From Alphaproteobacteria bacterium (GTDB taxonomy: Bacteria; Pseudomonadota; Alphaproteobacteria; Rs-D84), in assembly GCA_017935245.1 (NCBI GenBank), contig JAGBHZ010000011.1:107286-171285 (forward strand): a stretch of 64,000 nt of DNA, given 5' to 3'. How positions within the stretch are numbered: position 1 is the first letter of the stretch; the number at the start of each line of letters is the position of its first letter. The translations under genes were made by a program, and so were the position numbers. Below are positions 3,381 through 62,731 of this stretch, one piece after another. The notes beneath the pieces are model-generated. The model made no database searches, was not told where the DNA came from, and saw only the letters and a program-made list of their open reading frames with translations.

Positions 3381-3566
3381 ATGGCAGTAAAAAGCAACTT
3401 ACATTACAGATGGAAAGACGATAATCTAATCGTGAAACGCAATGGCGGTAAAAATTTGACATTTCCAAAAGCGTTAGGCGCATTTCATAAAGGTGGTGAG
3501 ATAATTGTTATTTCATCACTTGGCAAGAAAATCCGGATTGATAAATTTGGTCATCGGCACTGGTAA
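3381..3566 (+). CDS. Small hypothetical protein, possibly with an AbrB/MazE-like swapped-hairpin fold
   Basis: 61-aa ORF with an AAGGAA ribosome-binding site 8 nt upstream. The pattern NGGKNLTFPKALGAFHKGGEIIVISSLGKKIRIDK loosely resembles SpoVT/AbrB-type antitoxins. No toxin partner is visible, and the 3' end overlaps the convergent Rep-like gene. Confidence 0.3.
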   Translation: MAVKSNLHYRWKDDNLIVKRNGGKNLTFPKALGAFHKGGEIIVISSLGKKIRIDKFGHRHW

Positions 3567-4333
3567 AAATTGCTGATGTATCTGAGCCGCACTTTTTCAA
3601 AAAACACAGTACCCACACCGCACACACACCCCAACATTTTTATCAGGGGTGTTTTTTGATATAATCTTTTTGAAATTTCAACAACGCATTTGGCAAGATT
3701 TACAATCGGTTGTTCTGATGCACTTGTTTCTTGCTCAGATTGTTTTGACAGTCGTTTTATCGGTCTTTTGTGTCTGGTCACCCCAAGTAAAGTGCCGGCC
3801 ATTTCAAGCATGTAAATCGATGTGATTTTGTTGTTTCTGATAAATTCTTTGATGTCATAGTGATATATATTGTCATCAGGGTTTATTTGCCGACAATCAT
3901 ATTCCACCATTAGCCTTTGTGGTTCATAATTGTTTATTTTGGCAAGATGTTTGGCGAATTGTTCGTTGGCATAGTCTAAAGCACATTGTATTTCTTCATC
4001 TGTATATAAATCACCGTTGTGTTTCCTTGCATCCAATAGAATATGACAGTGATATGGGGTGTATGGGTTTTTGTGATTTTCAAAAAACACTACAAAATCA
4101 ACCATTCTTCGCTGCCAATCGTTGGTATCTTTTGTTTTTCTTTTGGTTGTTTGTTTATACTTTTTGTAAATAATTCCTTTTTCGAAATCTAGCATAAACT
4201 GCCGCAGATATCTTTTTGTTGTATCTAAATTTGAACTCTTGATGCAGAATGGTAATTGTAATGACAACGAATGTGTATACCCCTGTTGCGCCAGCCATTC
4301 TGCTATTATTTTTTCATGATTGTTATTATTCAT
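3551..4333 (-). CDS. Putative rolling-circle replication initiator (HUH endonuclease, Rep_1-like), a mobile-element-type gene
   Basis: 260 aa. The motif NPYTPYHCHILLDA matches the HUH motif II of pC194/pUB110-type Rep proteins (PHFHVLIA). A Tyr-rich segment (NIYHYDIKEF) follows roughly 50 aa later. The gene sits between hsdR and tRNA-Val, which is an island-like context. Confidence 0.45.
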   Translation of the reverse strand: MNNNNHEKIIAEWLAQQGYTHSLSLQLPFCIKSSNLDTTKRYLRQFMLDFEKGIIYKKYKQTTKRKTKDTNDWQRRMVDFVVFFENHKNPYTPYHCHILLDARKHNGDLYTDEEIQCALDYANEQFAKHLAKINNYEPQRLMVEYDCRQINPDDNIYHYDIKEFIRNNKITSIYMLEMAGTLLGVTRHKRPIKRLSKQSEQETSASEQPIVNLAKCVVEISKRLYQKTPLIKMLGCVCGVGTVFFEKVRLRYISNFYQCR

Positions 4334-4809: not shown

Positions 4810-4886
4810 GGGTGGTTAGCTCAGTTGGTTAGAGCGTTACGTTGACATCGTAAAGGTCGTTGGTTCGAGTCCAATACCACCCACCA
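4810..4886 (+). tRNA. tRNA-Val (anticodon GAC)
   Basis: Full cloverleaf: acceptor GGGTGGT/ACCACCC, D-arm GCTCAGTTGGTTAGAGC, anticodon stem TTACG/CGTAA with loop TTGACAT, T-arm GGTTCGAGTCC, and an encoded CCA. Confidence 0.93.
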
Positions 4887-5136: not shown

Positions 5137-7128
5137 ATGGCAAAAAAATATTTAATTACGTCTGCATTACCGTATGTAAATAACAACCTGCATATTGGAC
5201 ATCTGGTGGGGTGCTGGTTGCCATCCGATGTTTATGCACGTTTTTGCCGCGCACGGGGGCGTGATGTATTATATGTATGTGGGGCCGATGAACATGGCAC
5301 AACCAGCGAAATCGGTGCACAAAAAGAAAATATGCCAATCGAAGATTATGTTGATAAATATCGCGCGGCACATGAACAATCGGTGCGTGATTTTAATTTG
5401 TCTTTTGATATTTATGGACGCACACACACAAAAAAACACCATGATTTAATTCAATCGTTATTCACACGCCTGGAACAGGAAAATATGATTGTGGAAAAGT
5501 CTTCTTGGCAGCCATATTCAATTAATGAAAATATGTTCTTGGCCGATCGCTTTGTTATTGGCACATGCCCAAAATGCGGATATGACGGGGCATATGGTAA
5601 CGAGTGCGGAAAATGCGGGGCAACACTGGAACCAGAACAATTAATTAATCCGCACAGTGCGGTTGATGCAACATCACCGGTGGAAATGCGGGAAACAAAA
5701 CACCTGTATTTCCGTACCAGCGCAATGCAAGACAAATTACGTACATGGATTGATTCACGCAAAGGATGGTCAAAAACCGCACTGGCAATTGCAAACAAAT
5801 GGCTGGAAGAGGGGCTGCATGACAGTCCAATCACACGTGATTTAAAGTGGGGAATTCCAGTTAATAAACCCGGATATGAAAACAAGGTTTTCTATGTTTG
5901 GTTTGATGCCCCGTGGGGATACGTTTCAATTTCCCAGGCGGCAAATGAAAACTGGGCCGAATGGTGGCATGGTGGCGATGATGTTGTATATGCACAATTT
6001 ATGGCCAAAGATAACGTTTCGTTCCATTCAATATTTTTCCCCGCCCAAGAATTAGCCATGAACGATAACTGGAAAACAGTTGATATATTAAAAGGGTTTA
6101 ATTTCTTGAACTTTAATGGCGCCAAGATTTCTAAATCAACGGGCAATGGAATTTTCCTGAACGAAGCGATTAATGACGCGCCCGCCGATTGTTGGCGTTA
6201 TGCCCTGATGGCAAGTGCGCCCGAAACCGACGACACAGATTTCACGGTTGCACGTTTTGCAGATATAGTTAACAAAGATTTAAACGGAATGCTGGGGAAC
6301 TTTGTTTCGCGCGTATGTAAATTAACCGCGAAAAACTTTGGCAACAATGTTCCAAATGCGGGTGCGATGGATTCAGGTTTAGAATCACAGATTAATGAAA
6401 AATTGAACGAATTAACATCTGCACTGGACGCATGTGAATTCCGTGCGGCAATTACGGCGTTGCGTGGTCTGTATGCAATTGGAAATGAATACATGACCAA
6501 AATGGAACCGTGGGCACTGGTTAAAAATGGTGATATGGATGCGGCCGGGGCGGTGTTAAATACATGCATGCAATTAATTGATTTATATGCGCGTGTGTCG
6601 GCGCCTTTTATCCCAACGGCGGCAGAAAAAATGCAAAACGTATTTACAACAATCCATGATTTATCTTGGCCAGAAAAATTTGAACGCCGCGTGGCAGACG
6701 GTGCGGAATTTGTGGTGCCGGAAAACATGTTCAATCGTATTGATGAAGAGACGGTTGCACATTTAACCGAAAAATACGCACCCAAAAAGGAAGACAACAC
6801 ACCAAAACCGGTTGTTGCAAAAATCATATCGGTTGAAAATCATCCAACACGTGATGATTTGCATATTTTATCGGTTGATTGTGGTGCAACCAAACCCGTT
6901 CAAATTGTTTGTGCGGCACCAAATGTACGCATTGGATTAACAAGTGTTTTGGCGCCGGTTGGTTGTTTATTGCCGGGTGCAAAAAAACCAATCACACAAA
7001 GAACAGTTGCAAACACTGAATCATATGGTATGATGTGCGGCACCGCAGAATTAGGTATCGGCACAGACGATAAAAACATTATCGAATTGGGCGATGACGC
7101 AATTGTCGGTTCTGAATTTATTAAATAG
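5137..7128 (+). CDS. metG: Methionyl-tRNA synthetase with a C-terminal EMAP/tRNA-binding domain
   Basis: HIGH motif (NNNLHIGHLVG), KMSKS motif (KISKS), zinc knuckle CPKCG...CGKCG, and a C-terminal OB-fold tRNA-binding domain. 663 aa. Confidence 0.95.
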   Translation: MAKKYLITSALPYVNNNLHIGHLVGCWLPSDVYARFCRARGRDVLYVCGADEHGTTSEIGAQKENMPIEDYVDKYRAAHEQSVRDFNLSFDIYGRTHTKKHHDLIQSLFTRLEQENMIVEKSSWQPYSINENMFLADRFVIGTCPKCGYDGAYGNECGKCGATLEPEQLINPHSAVDATSPVEMRETKHLYFRTSAMQDKLRTWIDSRKGWSKTALAIANKWLEEGLHDSPITRDLKWGIPVNKPGYENKVFYVWFDAPWGYVSISQAANENWAEWWHGGDDVVYAQFMAKDNVSFHSIFFPAQELAMNDNWKTVDILKGFNFLNFNGAKISKSTGNGIFLNEAINDAPADCWRYALMASAPETDDTDFTVARFADIVNKDLNGMLGNFVSRVCKLTAKNFGNNVPNAGAMDSGLESQINEKLNELTSALDACEFRAAITALRGLYAIGNEYMTKMEPWALVKNGDMDAAGAVLNTCMQLIDLYARVSAPFIPTAAEKMQNVFTTIHDLSWPEKFERRVADGAEFVVPENMFNRIDEETVAHLTEKYAPKKEDNTPKPVVAKIISVENHPTRDDLHILSVDCGATKPVQIVCAAPNVRIGLTSVLAPVGCLLPGAKKPITQRTVANTESYGMMCGTAELGIGTDDKNIIELGDDAIVGSEFIK

Positions 7129-15846: not shown

Positions 15847-15922
15847 TGGTGCCGGTGACAGGACTTGAACCTACGACCCCCTCATTACGAATGAGATGCT
15901 CTACCAGCTGAGCTACACCGGC
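15847..15922 (-). tRNA. tRNA-Thr (anticodon CGU)
   Basis: The reverse complement GCCGGTGTAGCTCAGCTGGTAGAGCA...CTCATTCGTAATGAG...GGTTCAAGTCC...CACCGGCACCA folds as a cloverleaf. The T-stem has two G-U pairs. Confidence 0.85.
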
Positions 15923-22446: not shown

Positions 22447-22450
22447 CGAT

Positions 22451-22478
22451 AAAAAAATCCCCAAATGGGGATTTTTTT
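22451..22478. terminator. Bidirectional rho-independent terminator between the convergent ftsK and rpsO
   Basis: AAAAAAATCCCC-aaat-GGGGATTTTTTT. Confidence 0.8.
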
Positions 22479-22749
22479 ATTTACGCAGACCTAATTTCTT
22501 AATCAGTTCTTCGTATTCGGCAACATCATTTTTCTTGATATATGCCAACAATTTTTTACGACGGTTAACCATCAACAACAAACCACGTTTAGAATGTTTG
22601 TCTTTGTGATTAGCCTTCATGTGTTCTGTCAAATTGCGAATACGCAAAGTCAAACCGGCAACCTGGGCCGCCGCAGAACCACCATTGTCTTTTTCAGTCG
22701 TTTTGAAATTTGCCACTACTTCGGCAATTTGTTCTTTTGTAACGGACAT
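22477..22749 (-). CDS. rpsO: 30S ribosomal protein S15
   Basis: MSVTKEQIAEVVANF...HKDKHSKRGLLLMVNRRKKLLAYIKK is clearly S15. The true start is the internal Met; the tracked ORF 22477..22914 over-extends into truB. Confidence 0.92.
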   Translation of the reverse strand: MSVTKEQIAEVVANFKTTEKDNGGSAAAQVAGLTLRIRNLTEHMKANHKDKHSKRGLLLMVNRRKKLLAYIKKNDVAEYEELIKKLGLRK

Positions 22750-49583: not shown

Positions 49584-49658
49584 AATTAGTTGATTTTTTA
49601 ATGTTTTTACCGCTATGATTGTTGTGTGTTCTTGGATTTCAATCGAAAAGGATTAAAT

Positions 49659-50546
49659 ATGAAGGGAATTATCTTGGCCGGGGGCAGTGGTACCCGCCTT
49701 TATCCGTTAACAAAAACAACATCAAAGCAATTGTTGCCGGTTTATGATAAACCGATGATTTATTATCCGTTATCAACACTGATGCAATTTGGTATCAAAG
49801 ATATTCTTATTATATCTACGCCGGTTGATACACCAAATATAGAAAAGTTATTCGGTGATGGTTCTAAGATTGGGTTGAATATTCAATATGCCGTTCAGCC
49901 AGAACCCAAAGGTATTGCACAAGCATTTACAATCGGGGCGGATTTTATCGGAAACGATGATGTGTGTTTAATATTGGGGGATAATATATTCTATATGGGT
50001 GGACAATTCCCAATGTTTGAGGCCGAGGTTAAAAAGAATACTGGAAAATGTGCAACTATATTTGCGTATCATGTTTCCGACCCGGAAAGATTTGGGGTTG
50101 TTGAATTTGATGAAAATTTAAAAGCGGTTTCAATCGAAGAAAAACCAAAAAATCCAAAATCAAACTATGCGTCGGTTGGACTGTATTTTTATCCAGGCGA
50201 CGTTGTTGAAAAGGCGCGCAACCTGACCCCGTCGGCGCGTGGCGAACTGGAAATTACAGACCTTAATAACATTTATCTGCGCGAAGGACGTATGTCGGTT
50301 GTGCCAATGCGGCGTGGTAACGCATGGTTGGATGCGGGAACCCCGGACAGTCTTATGGAATCGGGACAATTTGTTCAGATTATAGAGGCACGCCAGGGAT
50401 TAAAAATTGCATGTATCGAAGAAATTGCATATAAACAGGGATTTATTAACGATGAACAAATGCGGGCATTGATTGATGAATTGAAATCTGGGGCGTATAA
50501 AGATTATCTACAAAAAGTGTACGAGGAAAAACATGAACTTTATTAA
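49659..50546 (+). CDS. rmlA: Glucose-1-phosphate thymidylyltransferase
   Basis: MKGIILAGGSGTRLYPLT...; roughly 295 aa from the internal Met. Confidence 0.93.
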   Translation: MKGIILAGGSGTRLYPLTKTTSKQLLPVYDKPMIYYPLSTLMQFGIKDILIISTPVDTPNIEKLFGDGSKIGLNIQYAVQPEPKGIAQAFTIGADFIGNDDVCLILGDNIFYMGGQFPMFEAEVKKNTGKCATIFAYHVSDPERFGVVEFDENLKAVSIEEKPKNPKSNYASVGLYFYPGDVVEKARNLTPSARGELEITDLNNIYLREGRMSVVPMRRGNAWLDAGTPDSLMESGQFVQIIEARQGLKIACIEEIAYKQGFINDEQMRALIDELKSGAYKDYLQKVYEEKHELY

Positions 50547-51084
50547 AACCGAAATCGATGGTGTTGTTATCGTTGAACCACGTGTGTTTGAAGATGCACG
50601 CGGATATTTCTTTGAATCTTATAACGAGGCCGAATTTATCAAAAACGGTATAACCGCAAAGTTTGTCCAAGATAATCAATCAAAATCATCATATGGGGTG
50701 GTGCGTGGTCTGCATTGTCAATTGGGTGAACATGCCCAGGCAAAATTGGTGCGGGTGTTGTCGGGGCGCGTGCTGGATGTGGCGGTTGATATTAGAAAAA
50801 ATTCACCAACGTTTGGTAAATATGTTGCAGTTGAATTGTCGGACGAAAATAAACGGCAACTGTTTATTCCACGTGGATTCTTGCACGGTTTTTCAGTGTT
50901 AAGTGATACGGCGGTTTTTGCGTATAAATGTGATAATCTTTATGCGCCACAGGCTGAATTTGGTATTCGGTTTGATGATCCGGATATTGGAATCGACTGG
51001 ATGGTGCCACAGGATAAAATTATTACATCGGCCAAAGATAACATAGCCAAGGGGTTAAAAGATGTACCTGATAACGGGATGTAA
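50533..51084 (+). CDS. rmlC: dTDP-4-dehydrorhamnose 3,5-epimerase
   Basis: RmlC cupin fold (VIVEPRVFEDARGYFFESYN...RGLHCQ). 183 aa. Confidence 0.92.
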   Translation: MNFIKTEIDGVVIVEPRVFEDARGYFFESYNEAEFIKNGITAKFVQDNQSKSSYGVVRGLHCQLGEHAQAKLVRVLSGRVLDVAVDIRKNSPTFGKYVAVELSDENKRQLFIPRGFLHGFSVLSDTAVFAYKCDNLYAPQAEFGIRFDDPDIGIDWMVPQDKIITSAKDNIAKGLKDVPDNGM

Positions 51085-51883
51085 TGGGCAATTGGGGACC
51101 GAATTAAAAAAGCGTATTCCGGATGCAATTTGCGCAGATGTTGATATACTGGATATCACCGATGGCGCGGCGGTCCAAAAATTTGTGCGTGAAAATAATG
51201 TTGATTTAATTATTAACTGTGCGGCATATACCGCCGTAGATAGGGCCGAAGATGATATAGAATTGGCCACCAAGATAAATGTTGATGGGCCGCGTAACCT
51301 GGCAAAAACGGGCGCAAGAATAATACATATTTCCACAGATTATGTTTTTGATGGTATGGGGCACGTGCCGTATTCGCCCGATGATGAAACAAATCCGATA
51401 TCGGTATATGGTAAAACAAAGCGGGACGGGGAATTGGCGGTGCTTAACAACGCGTCGGTTGCGGTTGTTATTCGTACTGCGTGGCTGTACAGTCCGTATG
51501 GAAATAACTTTGTAAAAACTATGCGTCGTTTGGGTGCGGAAAAAGAATCAATAAATGTTGTTTCCGATCAGATTGGAACACCAACGTATGCAGGCGATTT
51601 GGCGGATGCAATTGTGCAAATTATTCCACAGATGACACGTGAAAACAGTGGCGTTTATCACTTTACCAATATGGGGGTGTGTTCGTGGTATGATTTTGCA
51701 AGTGAGATTATGGAAATGTCGGGGCTAAAATGCGCTGTAAATCCAATTAAATCAAGTGATTATCCAACGCGCGCCGTGCGACCGTTTTATAGCGTTTTGG
51801 ATAAATCAAAAATTCAAAAGGTTTTTAATATAAAAATTCAACATTGGAAAAAAGGTTTGGAAAAATGTCTAAAACAATTTTAA
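51062..51883 (+). CDS. rmlD: dTDP-4-dehydrorhamnose reductase
   Basis: ITGCNGQLG Rossmann N-terminus and a YGKTK catalytic motif. 273 aa. Confidence 0.9.
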   Translation: MYLITGCNGQLGTELKKRIPDAICADVDILDITDGAAVQKFVRENNVDLIINCAAYTAVDRAEDDIELATKINVDGPRNLAKTGARIIHISTDYVFDGMGHVPYSPDDETNPISVYGKTKRDGELAVLNNASVAVVIRTAWLYSPYGNNFVKTMRRLGAEKESINVVSDQIGTPTYAGDLADAIVQIIPQMTRENSGVYHFTNMGVCSWYDFASEIMEMSGLKCAVNPIKSSDYPTRAVRPFYSVLDKSKIQKVFNIKIQHWKKGLEKCLKQF

Positions 51884-52878
51884 TTACCGGTGGTGCGGGG
51901 TTTATTGGTTCAAACTTTGTGCCGTATTTTTGTGAAAAATATCCGGAATACAATATTATCAATCTGGATAAATTGACGTATGCGGGGAATCTGGATAATT
52001 TGCGTGAATGCGAAAGTATGCCAAATTATACCTTTGTTCGGGGGGATATTTGCGACGCAGATTTTATTGATAAATTGTTTGATGAAAATGATATTCGTGG
52101 CGTAATTCACTTTGCGGCGGAAAGTCATGTTGATAATTCGATAAAGGGGCCACGCGCATTTATTAACACAAATATTGTTGGAACATTTAATTTGTTGGAT
52201 GCGGCGCGTCGTCATTGGATGGATGGGCCGGGTGTGGTAAAACCGGGATACGAAGATGCGCGTTTCCATCATATTTCCACCGACGAGGTTTATGGCGCAC
52301 TGGGTGCAACGGGTATGTTCCGCGAAGATACACCATACGCACCAAACAGTCCATATTCCGCGTCCAAGGCGTCGTCTGATTTCTTGGTTCGTGCGTATCA
52401 TCACACGTTTGGTATGAATGTAACAACATCAAATTGTTCAAATAACTATGGTCCGAAACAGCATAATGAAAAACTGATACCGCATATTATTTCCAAGGCA
52501 TTGGCATTACAGCCATTACCAATCTATGGCAAGGGTGAAAATGTTCGTGATTGGTTATATGTCCTTGATCATTGCAAGGCGATTGATTTAATTTTCCATA
52601 ATGGAAAATCGGGTGAAACATATAATATTGGCGGCCGTAATGAACGCAATAATATCACAATTGTGAAAACGATTTGCGCAATCCTGGACGAAAAGAAACC
52701 ACGCAATGACGGCAAAAAATACGAAGAATTAATTACATTTGTTGCCGACCGTGCGGGTCATGATTTCAGATATGCGATTGATGCGACAAAACTGGAAACG
52801 GAATTGGCGTGGCGCGCAGATGAAACGTTTGATACAGGGATTGTCAAAACCGTTGAATGGTATTTAAATAAAATCTAA
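51865..52878 (+). CDS. rmlB: dTDP-glucose 4,6-dehydratase
   Basis: ILITGGAGFIGSNF, YSASKASSD (YxxxK), and HISTDEVYG. Roughly 337 aa from MSKT. Confidence 0.93.
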   Translation: MSKTILITGGAGFIGSNFVPYFCEKYPEYNIINLDKLTYAGNLDNLRECESMPNYTFVRGDICDADFIDKLFDENDIRGVIHFAAESHVDNSIKGPRAFINTNIVGTFNLLDAARRHWMDGPGVVKPGYEDARFHHISTDEVYGALGATGMFREDTPYAPNSPYSASKASSDFLVRAYHHTFGMNVTTSNCSNNYGPKQHNEKLIPHIISKALALQPLPIYGKGENVRDWLYVLDHCKAIDLIFHNGKSGETYNIGGRNERNNITIVKTICAILDEKKPRNDGKKYEELITFVADRAGHDFRYAIDATKLETELAWRADETFDTGIVKTVEWYLNKI

Positions 52879-52895
52879 TAGCATATCTAAAGTAA

Positions 52896-52972
52896 ATGGG
52901 GAAATCTTGTGTAGCGTTTGTACACTACGATTCCCCCATTTATTTTATCTATACTATTATCTTTTATTTAAC
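52896..52972. repeat. Intergenic hairpin repeat, copy 1. It sits at the convergent rmlB/OMP junction and is probably a bidirectional terminator or REP-like element.
   Basis: TAAATGGGGAAATC-ttgTGTAGCGTTTGTACACTACga-GATTCCCCCATTTA, followed by the conserved tail TTTATCTATACTATTATCTTTTATTT. It is paralogous to 61778..61860. Confidence 0.7.
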
Positions 52973-53014
52973 GCAGGGCAAGGGGATTGTTAATATTATT
53001 GCCGCTTATATATG

Positions 53015-53590
53015 TTAAAAATTATACCGGAATCCAATTGAAAATTCAGATAACGATTTAATTAATTCATTACTTAGTGCGGAATACTGATATTGTCCCA
53101 ATATGGATACAGAATCGTTTGGAAATGTGAACATTAAACCAATTCCAAATCGTGATGCGGTTTCGGTTTGCTTGTCGGATTCTTCGTATGTTATTAATCC
53201 ATTATTATATTTATATTCGGATGATATATTATAATTTGCAATTCCAAACGAAGTGAAAAAATCCATGTTTTTTACAATTTCATAATAACCAAAAATATCA
53301 AAACCAAATGATTGATATGAAATAATATTTTCCTGGGTCAGGGCAAGTGTTTCATGGATAAATTCATTTTCATTATCGGCAGATTGTGTGAAAAATAATT
53401 CCACGCCAAAGTTTGGACCAATGCGCATACCGGCATTAATTGTGGCGGTGTAATATTGTTCTTCTAGATCAATATCATTGTTATATGATGCGATATTTAA
53501 TCCGGCGTCCATCCCAATATATGGTGTAAAATTATCGGCAAAGGCATTTGTTGATAAAATAATCGGTAAAATAAATAAAATCTTTTTCAT
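53015..53590 (-). CDS. Small outer-membrane beta-barrel protein (OmpW/Omp25-like), hypothetical
   Basis: Signal peptide (ILSTNAFA), amphipathic beta-strands, and a C-terminal ...GFRYNF. 191 aa. Confidence 0.6.
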   Translation of the reverse strand: MKKILFILPIILSTNAFADNFTPYIGMDAGLNIASYNNDIDLEEQYYTATINAGMRIGPNFGVELFFTQSADNENEFIHETLALTQENIISYQSFGFDIFGYYEIVKNMDFFTSFGIANYNISSEYKYNNGLITYEESDKQTETASRFGIGLMFTFPNDSVSILGQYQYSALSNELIKSLSEFSIGFRYNF

Positions 53591-53685: not shown

Positions 53686-53762
<77 letters not shown>

Positions 53763-56542: not shown

Positions 56543-56917
56543 ATGAAAAAGATTATTGCGTTATTGTCTGTGGTTTTATTGGCCGCGTGTGGTGGATTAA
56601 TAAAAAATGAAAATGGTAGTCAATATCTGGTTCAATTAGATGCAGAACCAATTGGATGTACGTATCTGTATAAACTGGAATCAGAAGTGTCGGTTTATGA
56701 TGCGGATGATGCACGCAGATATATGGAAAATCGTATTGTTGACCAGGCGCGTCCTGGGAATGCATACTGGATTACCAGTCAACGTACACGCCCGAACGAG
56801 TGGGTGATTTTTGGCCCGGAACGTGCATTTATATTGGTGGCAAATGTTTATGATTGTCCAAATCCACAGCGTGTGCGGACCGCGCGTGATGGTGGGGTGG
56901 CAACGGTGTCTTATTAA
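56543..56917 (+). CDS. Small lipoprotein, hypothetical
   Basis: Lipobox (LLAACGG). 124 aa. It starts 14 nt after lpxC and is followed by a strong terminator. Confidence 0.6.
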   Translation: MKKIIALLSVVLLAACGGLIKNENGSQYLVQLDAEPIGCTYLYKLESEVSVYDADDARRYMENRIVDQARPGNAYWITSQRTRPNEWVIFGPERAFILVANVYDCPNPQRVRTARDGGVATVSY

Positions 56918-56946
56918 AAAAATCCCCATATGGGGATTTTTTTTTA
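56916..56946. terminator. Bidirectional-looking rho-independent terminator
   Basis: AAAAAAATCCCCA-ta-TGGGGATTTTTTTTT. Confidence 0.8.
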
Positions 56947-57098
56947 TAATGAGTAAAGCTCAAAATACAAAGTTCAAATGATGAATACATTAAATATTTT
57001 ATAAATTCCCTAATTGTGTTTTGAACCTTGGTTTTAGTGTTGCGGGGGTGGGGATTTTTGTGTTATAATTTTATCACAAGACTAGTCAGAGAGAGAAA

Positions 57099-59040: not shown

Positions 59041-60678
59041 ATGGCAGAAAAACAAAATAATATCGTTGGAAAAAATACAGATGTGATTAAATTGTCTGTG
59101 CCAATTGGTCTGGAAAATTCCGAGACCAAGGATATTATTGATTATCTGTTTTCAAATGGTAATCGTTTGTTGACGGCAACCGGTGCAGAATTTGAATTGC
59201 CACGTGATACCCAGGGAATTATCGCATATTTTTCAGGTGGGGAAATTATTATATCACGCACACATAAATATGATGGGCGTGTGTTGGCATTTGTTGATTT
59301 AATGAAAAAACGTGGTCGTGTTGTTCATGAACCGTTTTATTCAGATATGGGTTTGGTGTCGGCAATTTATAAAACATACGAAGCACGCCTGGGCGGGGGT
59401 GCGCGTTCGCGTATGGATTATGATAACCAAATGCAAAAAGATTTTGTCGATATTATTGCACGCGCCGCCGCACAAAAGGTGTCAGACGTTCATATCGAGG
59501 TTGCCGACCAAACAACAATTTATTTCCGTATCGATGGCAGTATGCAACCCGTTATGGAATATAATTCAGGGTGGGGGGAATCATTTGTGCGTGCCGCGTT
59601 TGCGTCTGCGGATATGTCAAATGCAAACTATGCCCAGAATGAATATCAGTCTGCACAAAAAGATGGGCGTACGCCACTGCGCGGGACAAAAGATTTATAT
59701 CTGCCGTCGGGAATTCTGAGTGTTCGTATGCAATTTAATCCAATTGCGTTCGGTTCCCGGTATGTGGTGATGCGATTGTTGTATGATAATCCATCCGAAG
59801 GTATTAAAACCGAACAAGAATTTGGACCATATGAGCAAAGATTATTGGCGCGTATGCGTTCGTTCCCAACAGGTTTGGTTATTGTCGCAGGTCCAACCAG
59901 TTCGGGAAAATCAACGACATTGGTTCGTAATATGTCGATGATGTTAAAAGAACGTAATTATGAAATAAATATGATTACGGTGGAAAATCCGGTTGAACAA
60001 AAAATATTTGGTGCGCGTCAGATGCCGGTTGTAAATACAACAAACGAAGAACAACGCGAAGATAAATATACAGAAGCGTTGGCGGCCGCGCTGCGAAGCG
60101 ATCCGGATACGCTGATGGTTGGGGAAATTCGTACGTTGGCGGCGGCAGAATTAACCGTGCGTGGTGCATTGTCGGGGCATAATGTTTGGACAACGCTGCA
60201 CGCGAATTCGGCATTGGCCGCGTTAACACGTTTATTAGATTTGGGAATTGAACCATTCAAGTTAAAAGAAGAAACGTTGATGCGTGGTCTGGTATCAATG
60301 CGTTTGTTTAAAAAACTGTGCCCGCATTGTCGCCAGAAGTTATCTGAAAATCCAAATCGTTCGGCGTATCGGCGTGTTATGGATGCATTTGGTGATATCG
60401 GCTTGAACCAGGTTTATATTCGTGGTCCGGGGTGTGAACACTGTAAAGGAACGGGAACATTGGGACGTATCAAGGCCGGCGAGATTATTATTACAAACAG
60501 TGAATTTTTAGGTTTGGCATTGTCTGGAAATACAGATGGGGCGGTGCGTTATTGGCTGGAAGAAATGGATGGACGCACATTAAAAGAAGCCGCAACATCA
60601 TTAATGTTACAAGGAATTATCGGTGTTGATGAATTAGAACGCTGGGTTGGACAATTGGATCAGCCGGGGGTGTATTGA
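59041..60678 (+). CDS. GspE/PilB-family secretion ATPase (type II secretion/type IV pilus assembly ATPase)
   Basis: 545 aa. N2 domain (VSDVHIE...IYFRIDG), Walker A (GPTSSGKSTTL), Asp box, His box, and a tetracysteine zinc motif (CPHCRQ...CEHCKG). Confidence 0.85.
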   Translation: MAEKQNNIVGKNTDVIKLSVPIGLENSETKDIIDYLFSNGNRLLTATGAEFELPRDTQGIIAYFSGGEIIISRTHKYDGRVLAFVDLMKKRGRVVHEPFYSDMGLVSAIYKTYEARLGGGARSRMDYDNQMQKDFVDIIARAAAQKVSDVHIEVADQTTIYFRIDGSMQPVMEYNSGWGESFVRAAFASADMSNANYAQNEYQSAQKDGRTPLRGTKDLYLPSGILSVRMQFNPIAFGSRYVVMRLLYDNPSEGIKTEQEFGPYEQRLLARMRSFPTGLVIVAGPTSSGKSTTLVRNMSMMLKERNYEINMITVENPVEQKIFGARQMPVVNTTNEEQREDKYTEALAAALRSDPDTLMVGEIRTLAAAELTVRGALSGHNVWTTLHANSALAALTRLLDLGIEPFKLKEETLMRGLVSMRLFKKLCPHCRQKLSENPNRSAYRRVMDAFGDIGLNQVYIRGPGCEHCKGTGTLGRIKAGEIIITNSEFLGLALSGNTDGAVRYWLEEMDGRTLKEAATSLMLQGIIGVDELERWVGQLDQPGVY

Positions 60679-60679
60679 T

Positions 60680-61750
60680 ATGAATAAACTGGAAATGTTA
60701 TATGCAAAACTGGTGTTCAGATTCAGTACGGAAAAACGTATGGCGATTTGTCGAAAACTGGCGTCGTTGTTGCGTAATGATTTTACGTTGATGGATGCGC
60801 TGGGGCGTTTGGAAATGATTGAATCAAAAGGTGGTAAAAAACCAAACGAACCATTTGCAATCGTTATGCGTCAGTGGCAAAAAAACCTGGAACGGGGGAT
60901 GAGTTTTTCAGACGCAACACGTGGGTGGGTGCCACCAAATGAAACACTGTTGGTAACCAGTGGTAATATTTCAAATTTGGTGTTGGCGCTGGAAAATGTT
61001 GGGCGTGTTGTTGATGGTACACAACGTATTTCACGTGCAATGCGCGGTGCAATTGCGTACCCGTTATTTTTATTAGCGTTAACGTTTGGTATTATTTTAA
61101 TGGTGGGAATTTATCTGGTGCCGCCATTGGCAGATGTGGCCGGTGATAATATTGTATGGCGTGGGTCGGCACGTTCTTTAATCGCTTTGTCGGATTTTTC
61201 AATCGCATATTGGCCGTGGATTGTTGGTGTCTTTGTTGGGCTAATATTAATTATGTGGCTAAGTTTGGCGAATTGGTCCGGAAAAGTACGCGCCATGTTT
61301 GACAAGTTGCCACCATGGAATATTTATAAAATTCATATGGGTGTTGGTTGGATGATGGCGTTATCGGCAATGGTTGGGTCGGGGGTTACAATCCCAGATG
61401 CAATGCGTATGTTGGCAGATAATGCAAATAAATATCTGCGGTCTATATTGGACAGTGCACTGCATTTTATCGCAAATGGGGATAACCTGGGGGTTGCATT
61501 AAATAAAACCGAACGTGAATTTCCAGATGCAGATATTGTTGGGGATTTAACAATATATGCCGATATGAACGGATTTGATGAAAATTTAAGTCATGTGGCG
61601 AATGATTACCTGGCGGAATCGGTTCGAAAGATGGAATCTATTTCTAATATTATGAACAGTTTGGGAATTTTGCTGGTGTCTGCGATAATTGCATGGGTGG
61701 TATTGGGCACGTTCCAGATGCAAGACCAGATTACAGCGGCCCTGTCATAA
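60680..61750 (+). CDS. GspF/PilC-family inner-membrane platform protein with a single T2SSF domain (BfpE/R64 PilR-like size)
   Basis: About 356 aa from MNKL. The tracked ORF starts at 60647, inside the ATPase end; a stop-TGA-t-ATG junction gives 60680. It has an N-terminal cytoplasmic helical domain and three or four transmembrane helices. Confidence 0.75.
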   Translation: MNKLEMLYAKLVFRFSTEKRMAICRKLASLLRNDFTLMDALGRLEMIESKGGKKPNEPFAIVMRQWQKNLERGMSFSDATRGWVPPNETLLVTSGNISNLVLALENVGRVVDGTQRISRAMRGAIAYPLFLLALTFGIILMVGIYLVPPLADVAGDNIVWRGSARSLIALSDFSIAYWPWIVGVFVGLILIMWLSLANWSGKVRAMFDKLPPWNIYKIHMGVGWMMALSAMVGSGVTIPDAMRMLADNANKYLRSILDSALHFIANGDNLGVALNKTEREFPDADIVGDLTIYADMNGFDENLSHVANDYLAESVRKMESISNIMNSLGILLVSAIIAWVVLGTFQMQDQITAALS

Positions 61751-61777
61751 AAAACAAATCTAATGGCATATTTTAAA

Positions 61778-61860
61778 CCGAATTGGGGGTATCTCATGTA
61801 GCGTCTGTACACTACGATACCCCCAATTCGTTTATCTATACCATTATCTTTATTTTTTTT
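61778..61860. repeat. Intergenic hairpin repeat, copy 2. It sits at the convergent junction after the platform gene.
   Basis: CGAATTGGGGGTATC-tcaTGTAGCGTCTGTACACTACga-GATACCCCCAATTCG, followed by TTTATCTATACCATTATCTTTATTTTTTTT. Same core and tail as copy 1, with stem bases co-varied. Confidence 0.7.
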
Positions 61861-61887
61861 TCCAACCACCAGGGGTAGGGCAATTTT

Positions 61888-62457
61888 TTACACCATAAAT
61901 GGCAGGTTTTCAAGTGTCCCCTCGGCCACGCGTACATTAACGTCAATCATCATAAAGATTGAATCAGGTGTGCGCTGAATTTGTTCGGAAAATATACCAG
62001 AATCCAAAAGGTGGCTGGTATTAACCGATAATTTTGTAATCAGGTGGTCGTCATCCAGCAATGTATAAATCGGACCGATATCGCGTGGTGTGTTTGCGCC
62101 GATTTCATGTTCATTTTGTGGACAGCGCAGACCATCCATAATTGTTTTAACACGGTTATCAATGTCCGAACGTGGAACACCAACAATTTCAGGGTGTAAC
62201 ATTTGGATATCCAGTTCTGCAATCAATTTTAGATTTGGTGTAATAATTGGATTCCAATCAATACCACCAATATGGCGGGTGGTAATCGGACTTTTGGTTG
62301 GGTTGGGAACCATGTATTGTGTCAAATTGTTCCATGGACTGTGTTCAACCAATTTTTTTAATTGTGGATGAAACTGCATCCGGATGTCGGCGATGTGTTG
62401 TGCGCGCTTTTTTGGATTAATTAAAATATCCCCAAAATAAAGTAATTTGAATTTCAT
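61888..62457 (-). CDS. Hypothetical protein
   Basis: 189-aa ORF starting 2 nt after the upstream 90-aa gene. No motif recognised. Confidence 0.45.
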   Translation of the reverse strand: MKFKLLYFGDILINPKKRAQHIADIRMQFHPQLKKLVEHSPWNNLTQYMVPNPTKSPITTRHIGGIDWNPIITPNLKLIAELDIQMLHPEIVGVPRSDIDNRVKTIMDGLRCPQNEHEIGANTPRDIGPIYTLLDDDHLITKLSVNTSHLLDSGIFSEQIQRTPDSIFMMIDVNVRVAEGTLENLPFMV

Positions 62458-62458
62458 A

Positions 62459-62731
62459 TTATTTGCCTTTGTCTAAGATTTCTTTGAACATTTCAATCCC
62501 CAACGGGTGCAGGCGTAATACACGACGGTGATTCCATTTTGCGTCATAAATCAATTGTGTTGGGTTGTTGTATTTTGTTTTTATTTGTGTTTTTTTACGA
62601 AATTCAGAATCCATTGTCTTTTTAACGGTTTCCAAGTCATAAGTGGTACCGTATAATTCACTTAATTTTTTAACCAATGCGGATGCATTTAAAAAATCTT
62701 CTTTTGTAAATCTTGGTGTTGTGTTTGCCAT
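62459..62731 (-). CDS. Hypothetical small protein
   Basis: 90-aa ORF, first gene of a two-gene minus-strand pair. No motif recognised. Confidence 0.4.
   Translation of the reverse strand: MANTTPRFTKEDFLNASALVKKLSELYGTTYDLETVKKTMDSEFRKKTQIKTKYNNPTQLIYDAKWNHRRVLRLHPLGIEMFKEILDKGK

Follow-up and report, generated by a model that had tools for sequence, protein, structure and literature searches.

Imperfect palindromes abutting stop codons form a repeat family restricted to small-genome gut Alphaproteobacteria

Introduction

Among described systems, the closest in appearance are the REP and BIME sequences of enterobacteria and the REPINs of Pseudomonas. Like the element described here, they are extragenic imperfect palindromes at gene 3' ends or between cistrons, occur in mosaics or in tandem, and are transcribed with the upstream gene. 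REP and BIME sequences reportedly stabilise upstream mRNA and attenuate transcription, and the REPs of E. coli that lie near stop codons are said to affect translation termination. The present element differs in being conserved at the apex rather than at the foot, in lacking a unit of 5' GTAG plus palindrome, in its length of ~105 nt, and in its low copy number. In contrast to REPs and REPINs, no RAYT transposase was found near it, and its copies are orthologously conserved across species.

Other families offer partial parallels. BOX elements of Streptococcus pneumoniae are modular intergenic repeats whose first and last modules pair around a variable number of internal units, comparable to the full unit plus half units described below; they belong to an unrelated lineage, and the likeness concerns this modular layout. 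We know of no report of stop-codon coupling for BOX elements. Correia/NEMIS elements of Neisseria, ERIC of Yersinia, and the Rickettsia palindromic elements are palindromic repeats of 100-150 bp from genomes that are small or host-associated; they become part of co-transcribed mRNAs, their effects depend on orientation, and in some cases they lengthen or otherwise change coding ends. Their terminal inverted repeats come with a target duplication (TA for Correia), and they are numerous, whereas the Enterousia element has no target duplication, few copies, and an obligatory terminator position.

Ordinary bidirectional intrinsic terminators resemble the element in abutting the stop codon, in the succession of A-tract, hairpin, and T-tract, and in being interchangeable with it at orthologous sites. 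Unlike them, the element has a stem of ~45 bp with conserved internal mismatches, an invariant 26-nt apex, a fixed orientation, and tandem arrays.

Genomes of the order Rs-D84, the source of the DNA analyzed here, are 0.75-1.0 Mb in size (PMC12306168). In the literature on the repeats of this lineage and on the core sequence of the element we found no description of it. Here we describe a previously undescribed family of ~105-nt palindromic repeats, restricted to small-genome gut Alphaproteobacteria of the Candidatus Enterousia group.

Results

Two elements between convergent genes

The window, as we call the whole 64-kb stretch that was analyzed, contains the 21-nt core TGTAGCGT[T/C]TGTACACTACGA twice on the + strand, at 52910-52930 and 61797-61817. 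No other match exists in the window even with 3 mismatches allowed, when the number expected by chance is 0. The first-pass annotation had quoted this core without one T, while correctly placing it in both copies. It had also described the enclosing stems and a near-identical tail 3' of both copies, all of which we recovered; of the stems, TAAATGGGGAAATC/GATTCCCCCATTTA contains one A.C mismatch and CGAATTGGGGGTATC/GATACCCCCAATTCG is perfect. The two copies are real, but the ~80 bp originally assigned to them fell short by ~30 nt on the left, where AAATAAAATCTAAT(A/G)GCATAT pairs with ATCTATAC(T/C)ATTATCTTTTATTT on the right, giving a single imperfect hairpin of ~105 nt per copy.

Copy 1 is a full element of subtype B that occupies 52866..52969 (+, 104 nt), as delimited by sequence, folds, core search, and covariance model. 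It consists of the left arm (52866-52906), a 3-nt bulge (52907-52909), the core, the right stem (52931-52942), and a T-rich tail (52943-52969). Copy 2, also a full element of subtype B, occupies 61751..61861 (+, 111 nt; sequence, folds, and covariance model), with the left arm at 61751-61793, the bulge TCA at 61794-61796, and the right stem and T-rich tail at 61818-61830 and 61831-61861, respectively. The covariance model has only two matches in the window, 52862-52976 (112.7 bits) and 61747-61863 (109.8 bits); no further copies or other subtypes were found in the 64 kb. The + strands of copies 1 and 2 fold with -31 and -37 kcal/mol (z = -3.7 and -8.1 versus shuffled sequences). In both, the minus strand is the better folder, with -42 and -53.5 kcal/mol (z = -8.9 and -10.1).

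The placement of both copies between convergent ORFs, noted at first pass, agrees with the ORF list and Pfam. Copy 1 lies between an rfbB-like dehydratase gene (51844-52878, +; Pfam GDP_Man_Dehyd/Epimerase) and a gene for an outer-membrane beta-barrel protein, OMP (53015-53590, -). Copy 2 lies between a T2SSF gene (60647-61750, +) and a 189-aa ORF without a Pfam match, orf189 (61888-62457, -). In the ORF list, the rfbB-like stop codon (52876-52878, +) falls within the left arm of copy 1, which encodes the C-terminal ...L-N-K-I-stop of the protein; copy 2 starts 1 nt past the T2SSF stop codon (61748-61750). The spacer between copy 1 and the OMP stop (52970..53014, +) holds a recurrent GCAAGGGG module (52978-52985), and its GGGGATTGTT... 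resembles the 3' half of an ordinary terminator found at the same site in locus L104. From copy 2 to the orf189 stop (61862..61887, +) there is a remnant of an ordinary bidirectional terminator, CCAACCACCAGGGGTAGGGCAATTTTTT, recognized from the orthologous spacer of locus L110. Since each copy is the sole substantial hairpin separating its convergent gene pair, it is most likely the structure that terminates or protects the transcripts of both genes.

The proteins flanking copy 1 are unrelated to those flanking copy 2, and therefore the two copies are not a segmental duplication.

Some further features of the neighbourhood were noted. Four ORFs at 49626-52878 are collinear with the rmlA-rmlC-rmlD-rmlB dTDP-rhamnose cluster called in orthologous loci, and this order is kept in every orthologous locus examined. 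A tRNA-Met gene, 53686-53762(-), is located just upstream of the OMP gene facing copy 1; further tRNA genes of the window are tRNA-Val 4810-4886(+) and tRNA-Thr 15847-15922(-). The adjacent ORFs 61888-62457(-) and 62459-62731(-), of 189 and 90 aa, have no Pfam match. The former is kept between T2SSF and gyrB in loci L110-L112; of these, only L110 and L111 have a called ORF of 90-93 aa next to it.

Distribution of the family

A scan for the exact core in 185,579 species, each represented by a single genome, gave 102 stretches from 48 assemblies, all species-level MAGs, with 1-8 exact-core copies each. All of these MAGs are labelled Candidatus Enterousia or uncultured Alphaproteobacteria and come from animal guts, except for one labelled only 'bacterium'. 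With copies found by allowing up to 5 substitutions, the family comprises ~170 copies in the 48 MAGs. Thus, the dispersed family suspected from the two window copies is real. The core had no match in viral contigs. The proteins flanking the window copies are 86-95% identical to proteins in the loci that carry the element. Across 706 kb of such element-centred DNA, the R1 covariance model recovers ~130 copies on the sense strand.

Comparison with Rfam yielded only tRNAs at the gathering threshold in the window; at permissive thresholds, the best sub-threshold match at the element scored 31 bits against a cut-off of 211. Several other identities were rejected. An integron attC site, with its R''/L''-L'/R' boxes GTTRRRY and integrase, does not agree with the termini AAATAAAATC.../...TCTTTTATTT or with the housekeeping genes that neighbour the element. 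A retron, a CRISPR-like array, and a tRNA-like element were ruled out on sequence grounds, and the known consensus motifs of IHF, CsrA, NtcA, and dif-type sites do not fit the core.

Anatomy, covariation, and the apex

We describe elements in the + orientation of the window, called plus. From left to right, a full unit consists of AAAT(A/T)AAATCTAATGGCATATCTAAAG, a variable G-rich stem, ATC-TCA, the core, GAT, a variable C-rich stem, and CTTTATCTATACCATTATCTTT(T/A)ATTT. At least four subtypes (A to D) can be distinguished by their arms and inner stem, while the apex is common to all. Elements often form tandem arrays, in which a full unit comes first and 'half' units come after it. A half unit has a linker that carries a CC..GCAAGGGG mini-hairpin, then a short stem and the core, and ends with the right arm and its tail. 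Past the tail, 56 of 149 copies have a CAAGG-like module.

The consensus structure, built on 67 full copies, has 35 pairs, of which 22 show changes on both sides. Hence the compensatory stem changes first proposed from two copies are borne out in further ones. The proportion of paired cells is 96.1%, versus 79.3% when partners are shuffled and 35-46% when the partner column is slid.

The 26-nt apex (TCTCA-TGTAGCGTYTGTACACTACGA) is almost invariant in ~170 copies, whereas the pair that closes it varies from T-A to G-C, C-G, or A-T. The apex, an imperfect inverted repeat of 18 bp with the palindrome TGTACA inside it, could in principle be a signal at the DNA level placed in terminator loops: a DNA-uptake sequence, or the operator or roadblock site of a dimeric protein that binds GTAGYGT-N4-ACRCTAC. 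Terminators are known to harbour uptake sequences, the signals of Neisseria and Haemophilus forming terminator inverted repeats, and the present genomes encode machinery of the T2SS/type IV pilus type. On the other hand, known uptake sequences occur about once per kb, coding regions included, while the window has 2 copies in 64 kb and each ~0.9-Mb genome has from a few to tens. Moreover, all informative copies except one have the core in the same orientation with respect to the arms (at least 165 versus 1), and this strictness, together with the strict orientation relative to the gene, is unlike a symmetric double-stranded site. We consider a DNA-level signal very improbable.

The exceptional copy, at 5713-5818 of locus L026, is the only one with the core inverted relative to the arms; its arms still obey the stop-codon rule described below, for a gene on the opposite strand. 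Other variants were also observed. In some tandem arrays of ~101 bp, a second recurrent module, CGCTAATCACGAAC(N)TGTGTTTTTTGTT, takes the place of the usual left arm between array units (loci L002, L006, L049, L051, L086, and L096). An extended -10-like sequence, TTGTGATATAAT, recurs downstream of arrays (e.g., in loci L001, L014, L027, L033, L045, L046, and L056), and TTGCAA-N16-TAAAAT is present after rpoA. Both are probably promoters of this lineage for the next gene.

Coupling to stop codons

The placement between convergent genes, noted at first pass for both window copies, is no rule for the family: among 134 classifiable copies, 72 are in convergent and 56 in co-directional contexts, and some are located inside the rpsM-rpsK-rpoA cluster. 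The constant feature is not convergence but the presence of a same-strand gene whose stop codon the element abuts, in a fixed orientation. In 92 of 137 cases, a long plus-strand ORF ends 26-48 nt before the core, that is, at or within the first ~14 nt of the left arm. In this respect the element is placed like an intrinsic terminator, directly past a gene or operon end. Nearly all remaining stops are 109-154 nt from the core and correspond to second units of tandem arrays. Orientation relative to the abutting gene is 128:6 overall and 56:5 in co-directional contexts.

The left end often provides the stop codon itself, TTAAATAAAATCTAA being translated as ...LNKI-stop. This ending is present in the rfbB-like gene of the window and in T2SSF of another lineage, and in both the native C-terminus has been replaced. 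Of 120 rfbB homologues, 18 end in WYLNKI and the rest in WYL[KQNE].

The abutting genes form 28 clusters, of which a few are spurious, being ORFs that run through arrays. Orthologous housekeeping genes from many species make up the large clusters, such as efp, dnaN, rpoA, secB, and dnaA; further large ones encode an aminoacyl-tRNA synthetase, a secretin, an autotransporter, and an AMP-binding enzyme. Additional large clusters are presumably rpsK, rpsM, a thioredoxin-reductase-like gene, and a YebC-like gene, judging from C-terminal sequences only. In locus L044, elements follow rpsM, rpsK, and rpoA, and ~50 nt separate the first element from the rpsK start codon. Subtypes may differ at a given site: after efp, type A is present in 9 loci and type B in 3.

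Elements and ordinary terminators at orthologous sites

Ordinary terminators of the window, which are short GC hairpins flanked by A- and T-runs, start -1 to +6 nt from stop codons. Stop-codon abutment is thus the plain terminator position in these compact genomes. A side observation concerns two such bidirectional terminators, 22450-22483 and 56915-56948, which are 91% identical over 34 nt (TAAAAAAATCCCCAAATGGGGATTTTTTT) and may represent a second, smaller family of related terminators.

Orthologous spacers allow a direct comparison. In loci L103, L104, and L105, with rfbB 93-98% identical to that of the window and synteny kept, the rfbB-OMP spacer of 34-50 nt contains a short GC hairpin and a T-run instead of the element, while the window spacer has a full element and 136 nt. 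An ordinary terminator also directly follows the rfbB stop in L107-L109 (rfbB 93-97% identical) and L065 (86%), where, unlike in L103-L105, the neighbouring gene differs or the spacer is not aligned. The more distant L106 (rfbB 90% identical) has a degenerate element at the rfbB-OMP site. This short derivative (3512-3597) has a variant core, TGCAGCATTTGTACACTGTG, and has lost most of the tail; one apical pair is compensated from T-A to C-G.

The T2SSF-orf189 spacer provides a similar series. In L110 it contains only AAAAATCCCCCATTAGGGGGATTTTTT followed by the same ACACCATAA as in the window; in L111, an ordinary hairpin flanked by element-like AAATAAATCTAAT; in the window, the type B element, then the 3' half of the L110 terminator and the identical ACACCATAA; and in L112, a type A element with a small GC hairpin and a T-run. 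In these two spacer series, elements thus appear at ordinary terminators and displace them in part. The suggestion of a bidirectional terminator made at first pass gains from this exact correspondence of position; the activity of the element, either transcription termination or mRNA stabilisation, we infer from that position.

Several observations count against a simple terminator. A scan with a terminator consensus calls neither window copy, and the long hairpin ends in TTTTATTT with its GC-rich segment ~27 nt upstream of the T-run. An efficient terminator between rpsM and rpsK, ~50 nt from the next start codon, would be harmful. In ~29% of arrays, an ordinary GC hairpin with a T-run is still present within 90 nt downstream, and there the element is a 3'-UTR insert rather than a terminator.

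Sequence constraint

Orthologous elements have identities of 0.77-0.96, versus 0.51-0.63 at four-fold degenerate sites of the upstream gene. Hence the element is kept far more constant than neutral DNA. Subtype D is essentially a single-locus type, with 8 of its 9 copies following rpoA and one half unit in an array of L073. In 8 species the rpoA-linked element shows no variation outside a single helix segment, in which GAGT/ACTC is replaced by GGCT/AGCC through a double compensatory change, while the DNA just beyond it varies freely. Invariance, a compensated helix, and a free flank together argue for function and not only for recent spread.

Strand asymmetry

The antisense (minus) strand folds better than the sense strand in 91 of 107 copies, with means of -43.8 versus -35.2 kcal/mol. 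This is because the conserved non-Watson-Crick positions, which are C.A and tandem U.C/C.U in the sense RNA, become G.U and tandem G.A/A.G in the antisense one. G.U cells number 182 on the antisense strand versus 43 on the sense strand, although part of this excess may reflect the selection of full copies by minus-strand energy. In the rpoA element, both evolutionary intermediates are G.U on the antisense strand. A function of the sense RNA does not predict mismatches that favour the antisense strand. Possibly the sense RNA is recognized by means of these mismatches, or else the element is a directional barrier that blocks antisense or convergent transcription more strongly.

The same asymmetry would be expected of a small-RNA gene on the window minus strand, encoding a structured RNA of ~105 nt that ends in UUUUAUUU and is antisense to the 3' end of the neighbouring gene. 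The folding preference, the confinement of G.U wobbles and tandem G.A/A.G pairs to the minus strand, the G.U intermediates at rpoA, and the U-run that comes after the hairpin all agree with this model. It fails to explain the strict coupling to a sense-strand stop codon, and the arm needed for a complete minus-strand hairpin is missing from the half units of arrays. In addition, no promoter-like site was seen upstream on the minus strand of either window copy, the upstream region varies among copies, and there is no Rfam match. An antisense small RNA thus seems to us distinctly improbable, if slightly less so than a DNA-level signal.

Mobility

Gain and loss at orthologous sites, replaced coding ends, arrays, and chimeras show that copies move or get copied. 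Insertion polymorphism of the kind expected of a MITE is present, as the rfbB and T2SSF spacers may be filled or empty between flanking proteins that are 80-98% identical. Other signs of a mobile element are lacking. Target-site duplications of k>=3 were observed in 1 of 65 cases, versus 2.3 expected from permuted partners. A tblastn search for Y1-transposase-like sequence in 770 kb of element-centred DNA gave only noise with IS200 TnpA and E. coli RAYT sequences as queries, a weak negative. A within-genome search of the loci found no multi-copy protein gene near elements, and no parent autonomous IS with the same ends was seen in them. The REP/BIME/REPIN type, defined by a 20-40 nt palindrome with 5' GTAG in hundreds of copies, does not accommodate a ~105-nt element with apical conservation and 1-8 exact-core copies per genome. 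The REP/MITE-like identity proposed at first pass is not supported: there is no target-site duplication, no transposase was seen, and copy number is low.

The family could still be a selfish non-autonomous mobile element of a MITE/REPIN-like kind that aims at terminator regions and is tolerated there, its hairpin serving its own mobilisation as single-stranded DNA and not the host. Such an origin would account for presence and absence at orthologous sites of close relatives, for the different subtypes after efp, for native coding 3' ends swapped for LNKI-stop in the rfbB and T2SSF lineages, for tandem arrays, half units, and chimeric copies, for the flipped core in L026, and for the fact that the better-folding strand is not the sense transcript. 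Besides the negative results listed above and the low number of exact-core copies per genome, it has against it the persistence of copies at the same housekeeping gene ends in many species, at a level far above synonymous-site conservation. We regard a selfish element as rather unlikely; this reading and that of a terminator module are compatible, not exclusive. The simplest inference on the mode of spread is recombination at the A/T tracts and the shared core.

Discussion

With modest confidence, slightly favouring this reading over its negation, we propose that the family is an elaborated, recombining module that forms a terminator or an mRNA 3'-end hairpin and whose apex binds a putative factor. 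Transcription of a gene would include, at the 3' end, the element that abuts its stop codon. The two ends of the element, A-rich on the left and T-rich on the right, pair in the manner of an ordinary bidirectional terminator and enclose a GC-rich stem that is free to covary and is capped by the invariant apex. Copies would reach new gene ends, or swap subtypes at old ones, via recombination or insertion at terminator A/T tracts, and would amplify locally into tandem arrays.

The combination of a freely covarying stem with an invariant apex points to a putative trans-acting partner, for which the apex is most likely the recognition site. In this respect the guess made at first pass, that the element is possibly bound by a protein, is in line with the invariance of the apex, the factor itself remaining putative. 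Termination has no need of such invariance. One may go further and suppose that a dedicated RNA- or single-strand-binding factor docks at the apex and that the elements constitute a regulon of factor-dependent termination, antitermination, or mRNA fate; we give this extension only a minor share of probability, similar to that of the selfish element. If it were true, the regulon would span a few dozen housekeeping gene ends (efp, dnaN, dnaA, rpoA, rpsM, rpsK, secB, and secretion genes) in an order of bacteria whose genomes measure ~0.9 Mb. The conserved mismatches would then give sense and antisense transcription different strength, making the element a directional insulator.

If the terminator or 3'-end module is the right reading, the family would be a well-defined case of a genome-reduced, uncultured gut lineage swapping part of its terminators for a single constrained sequence family. 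The covariance model is a ready means of locating where genes end in MAGs of this lineage. Annotation pipelines will mis-call the spurious ORFs and altered C-termini (LNKI) that arise from the arrays. For instance, open frames through the arrays in loci L018, L062, L027, and L029 translate the core as ...CNVCTLHH...; such spurious ORFs have at least 60 aa, and gene callers may annotate them.
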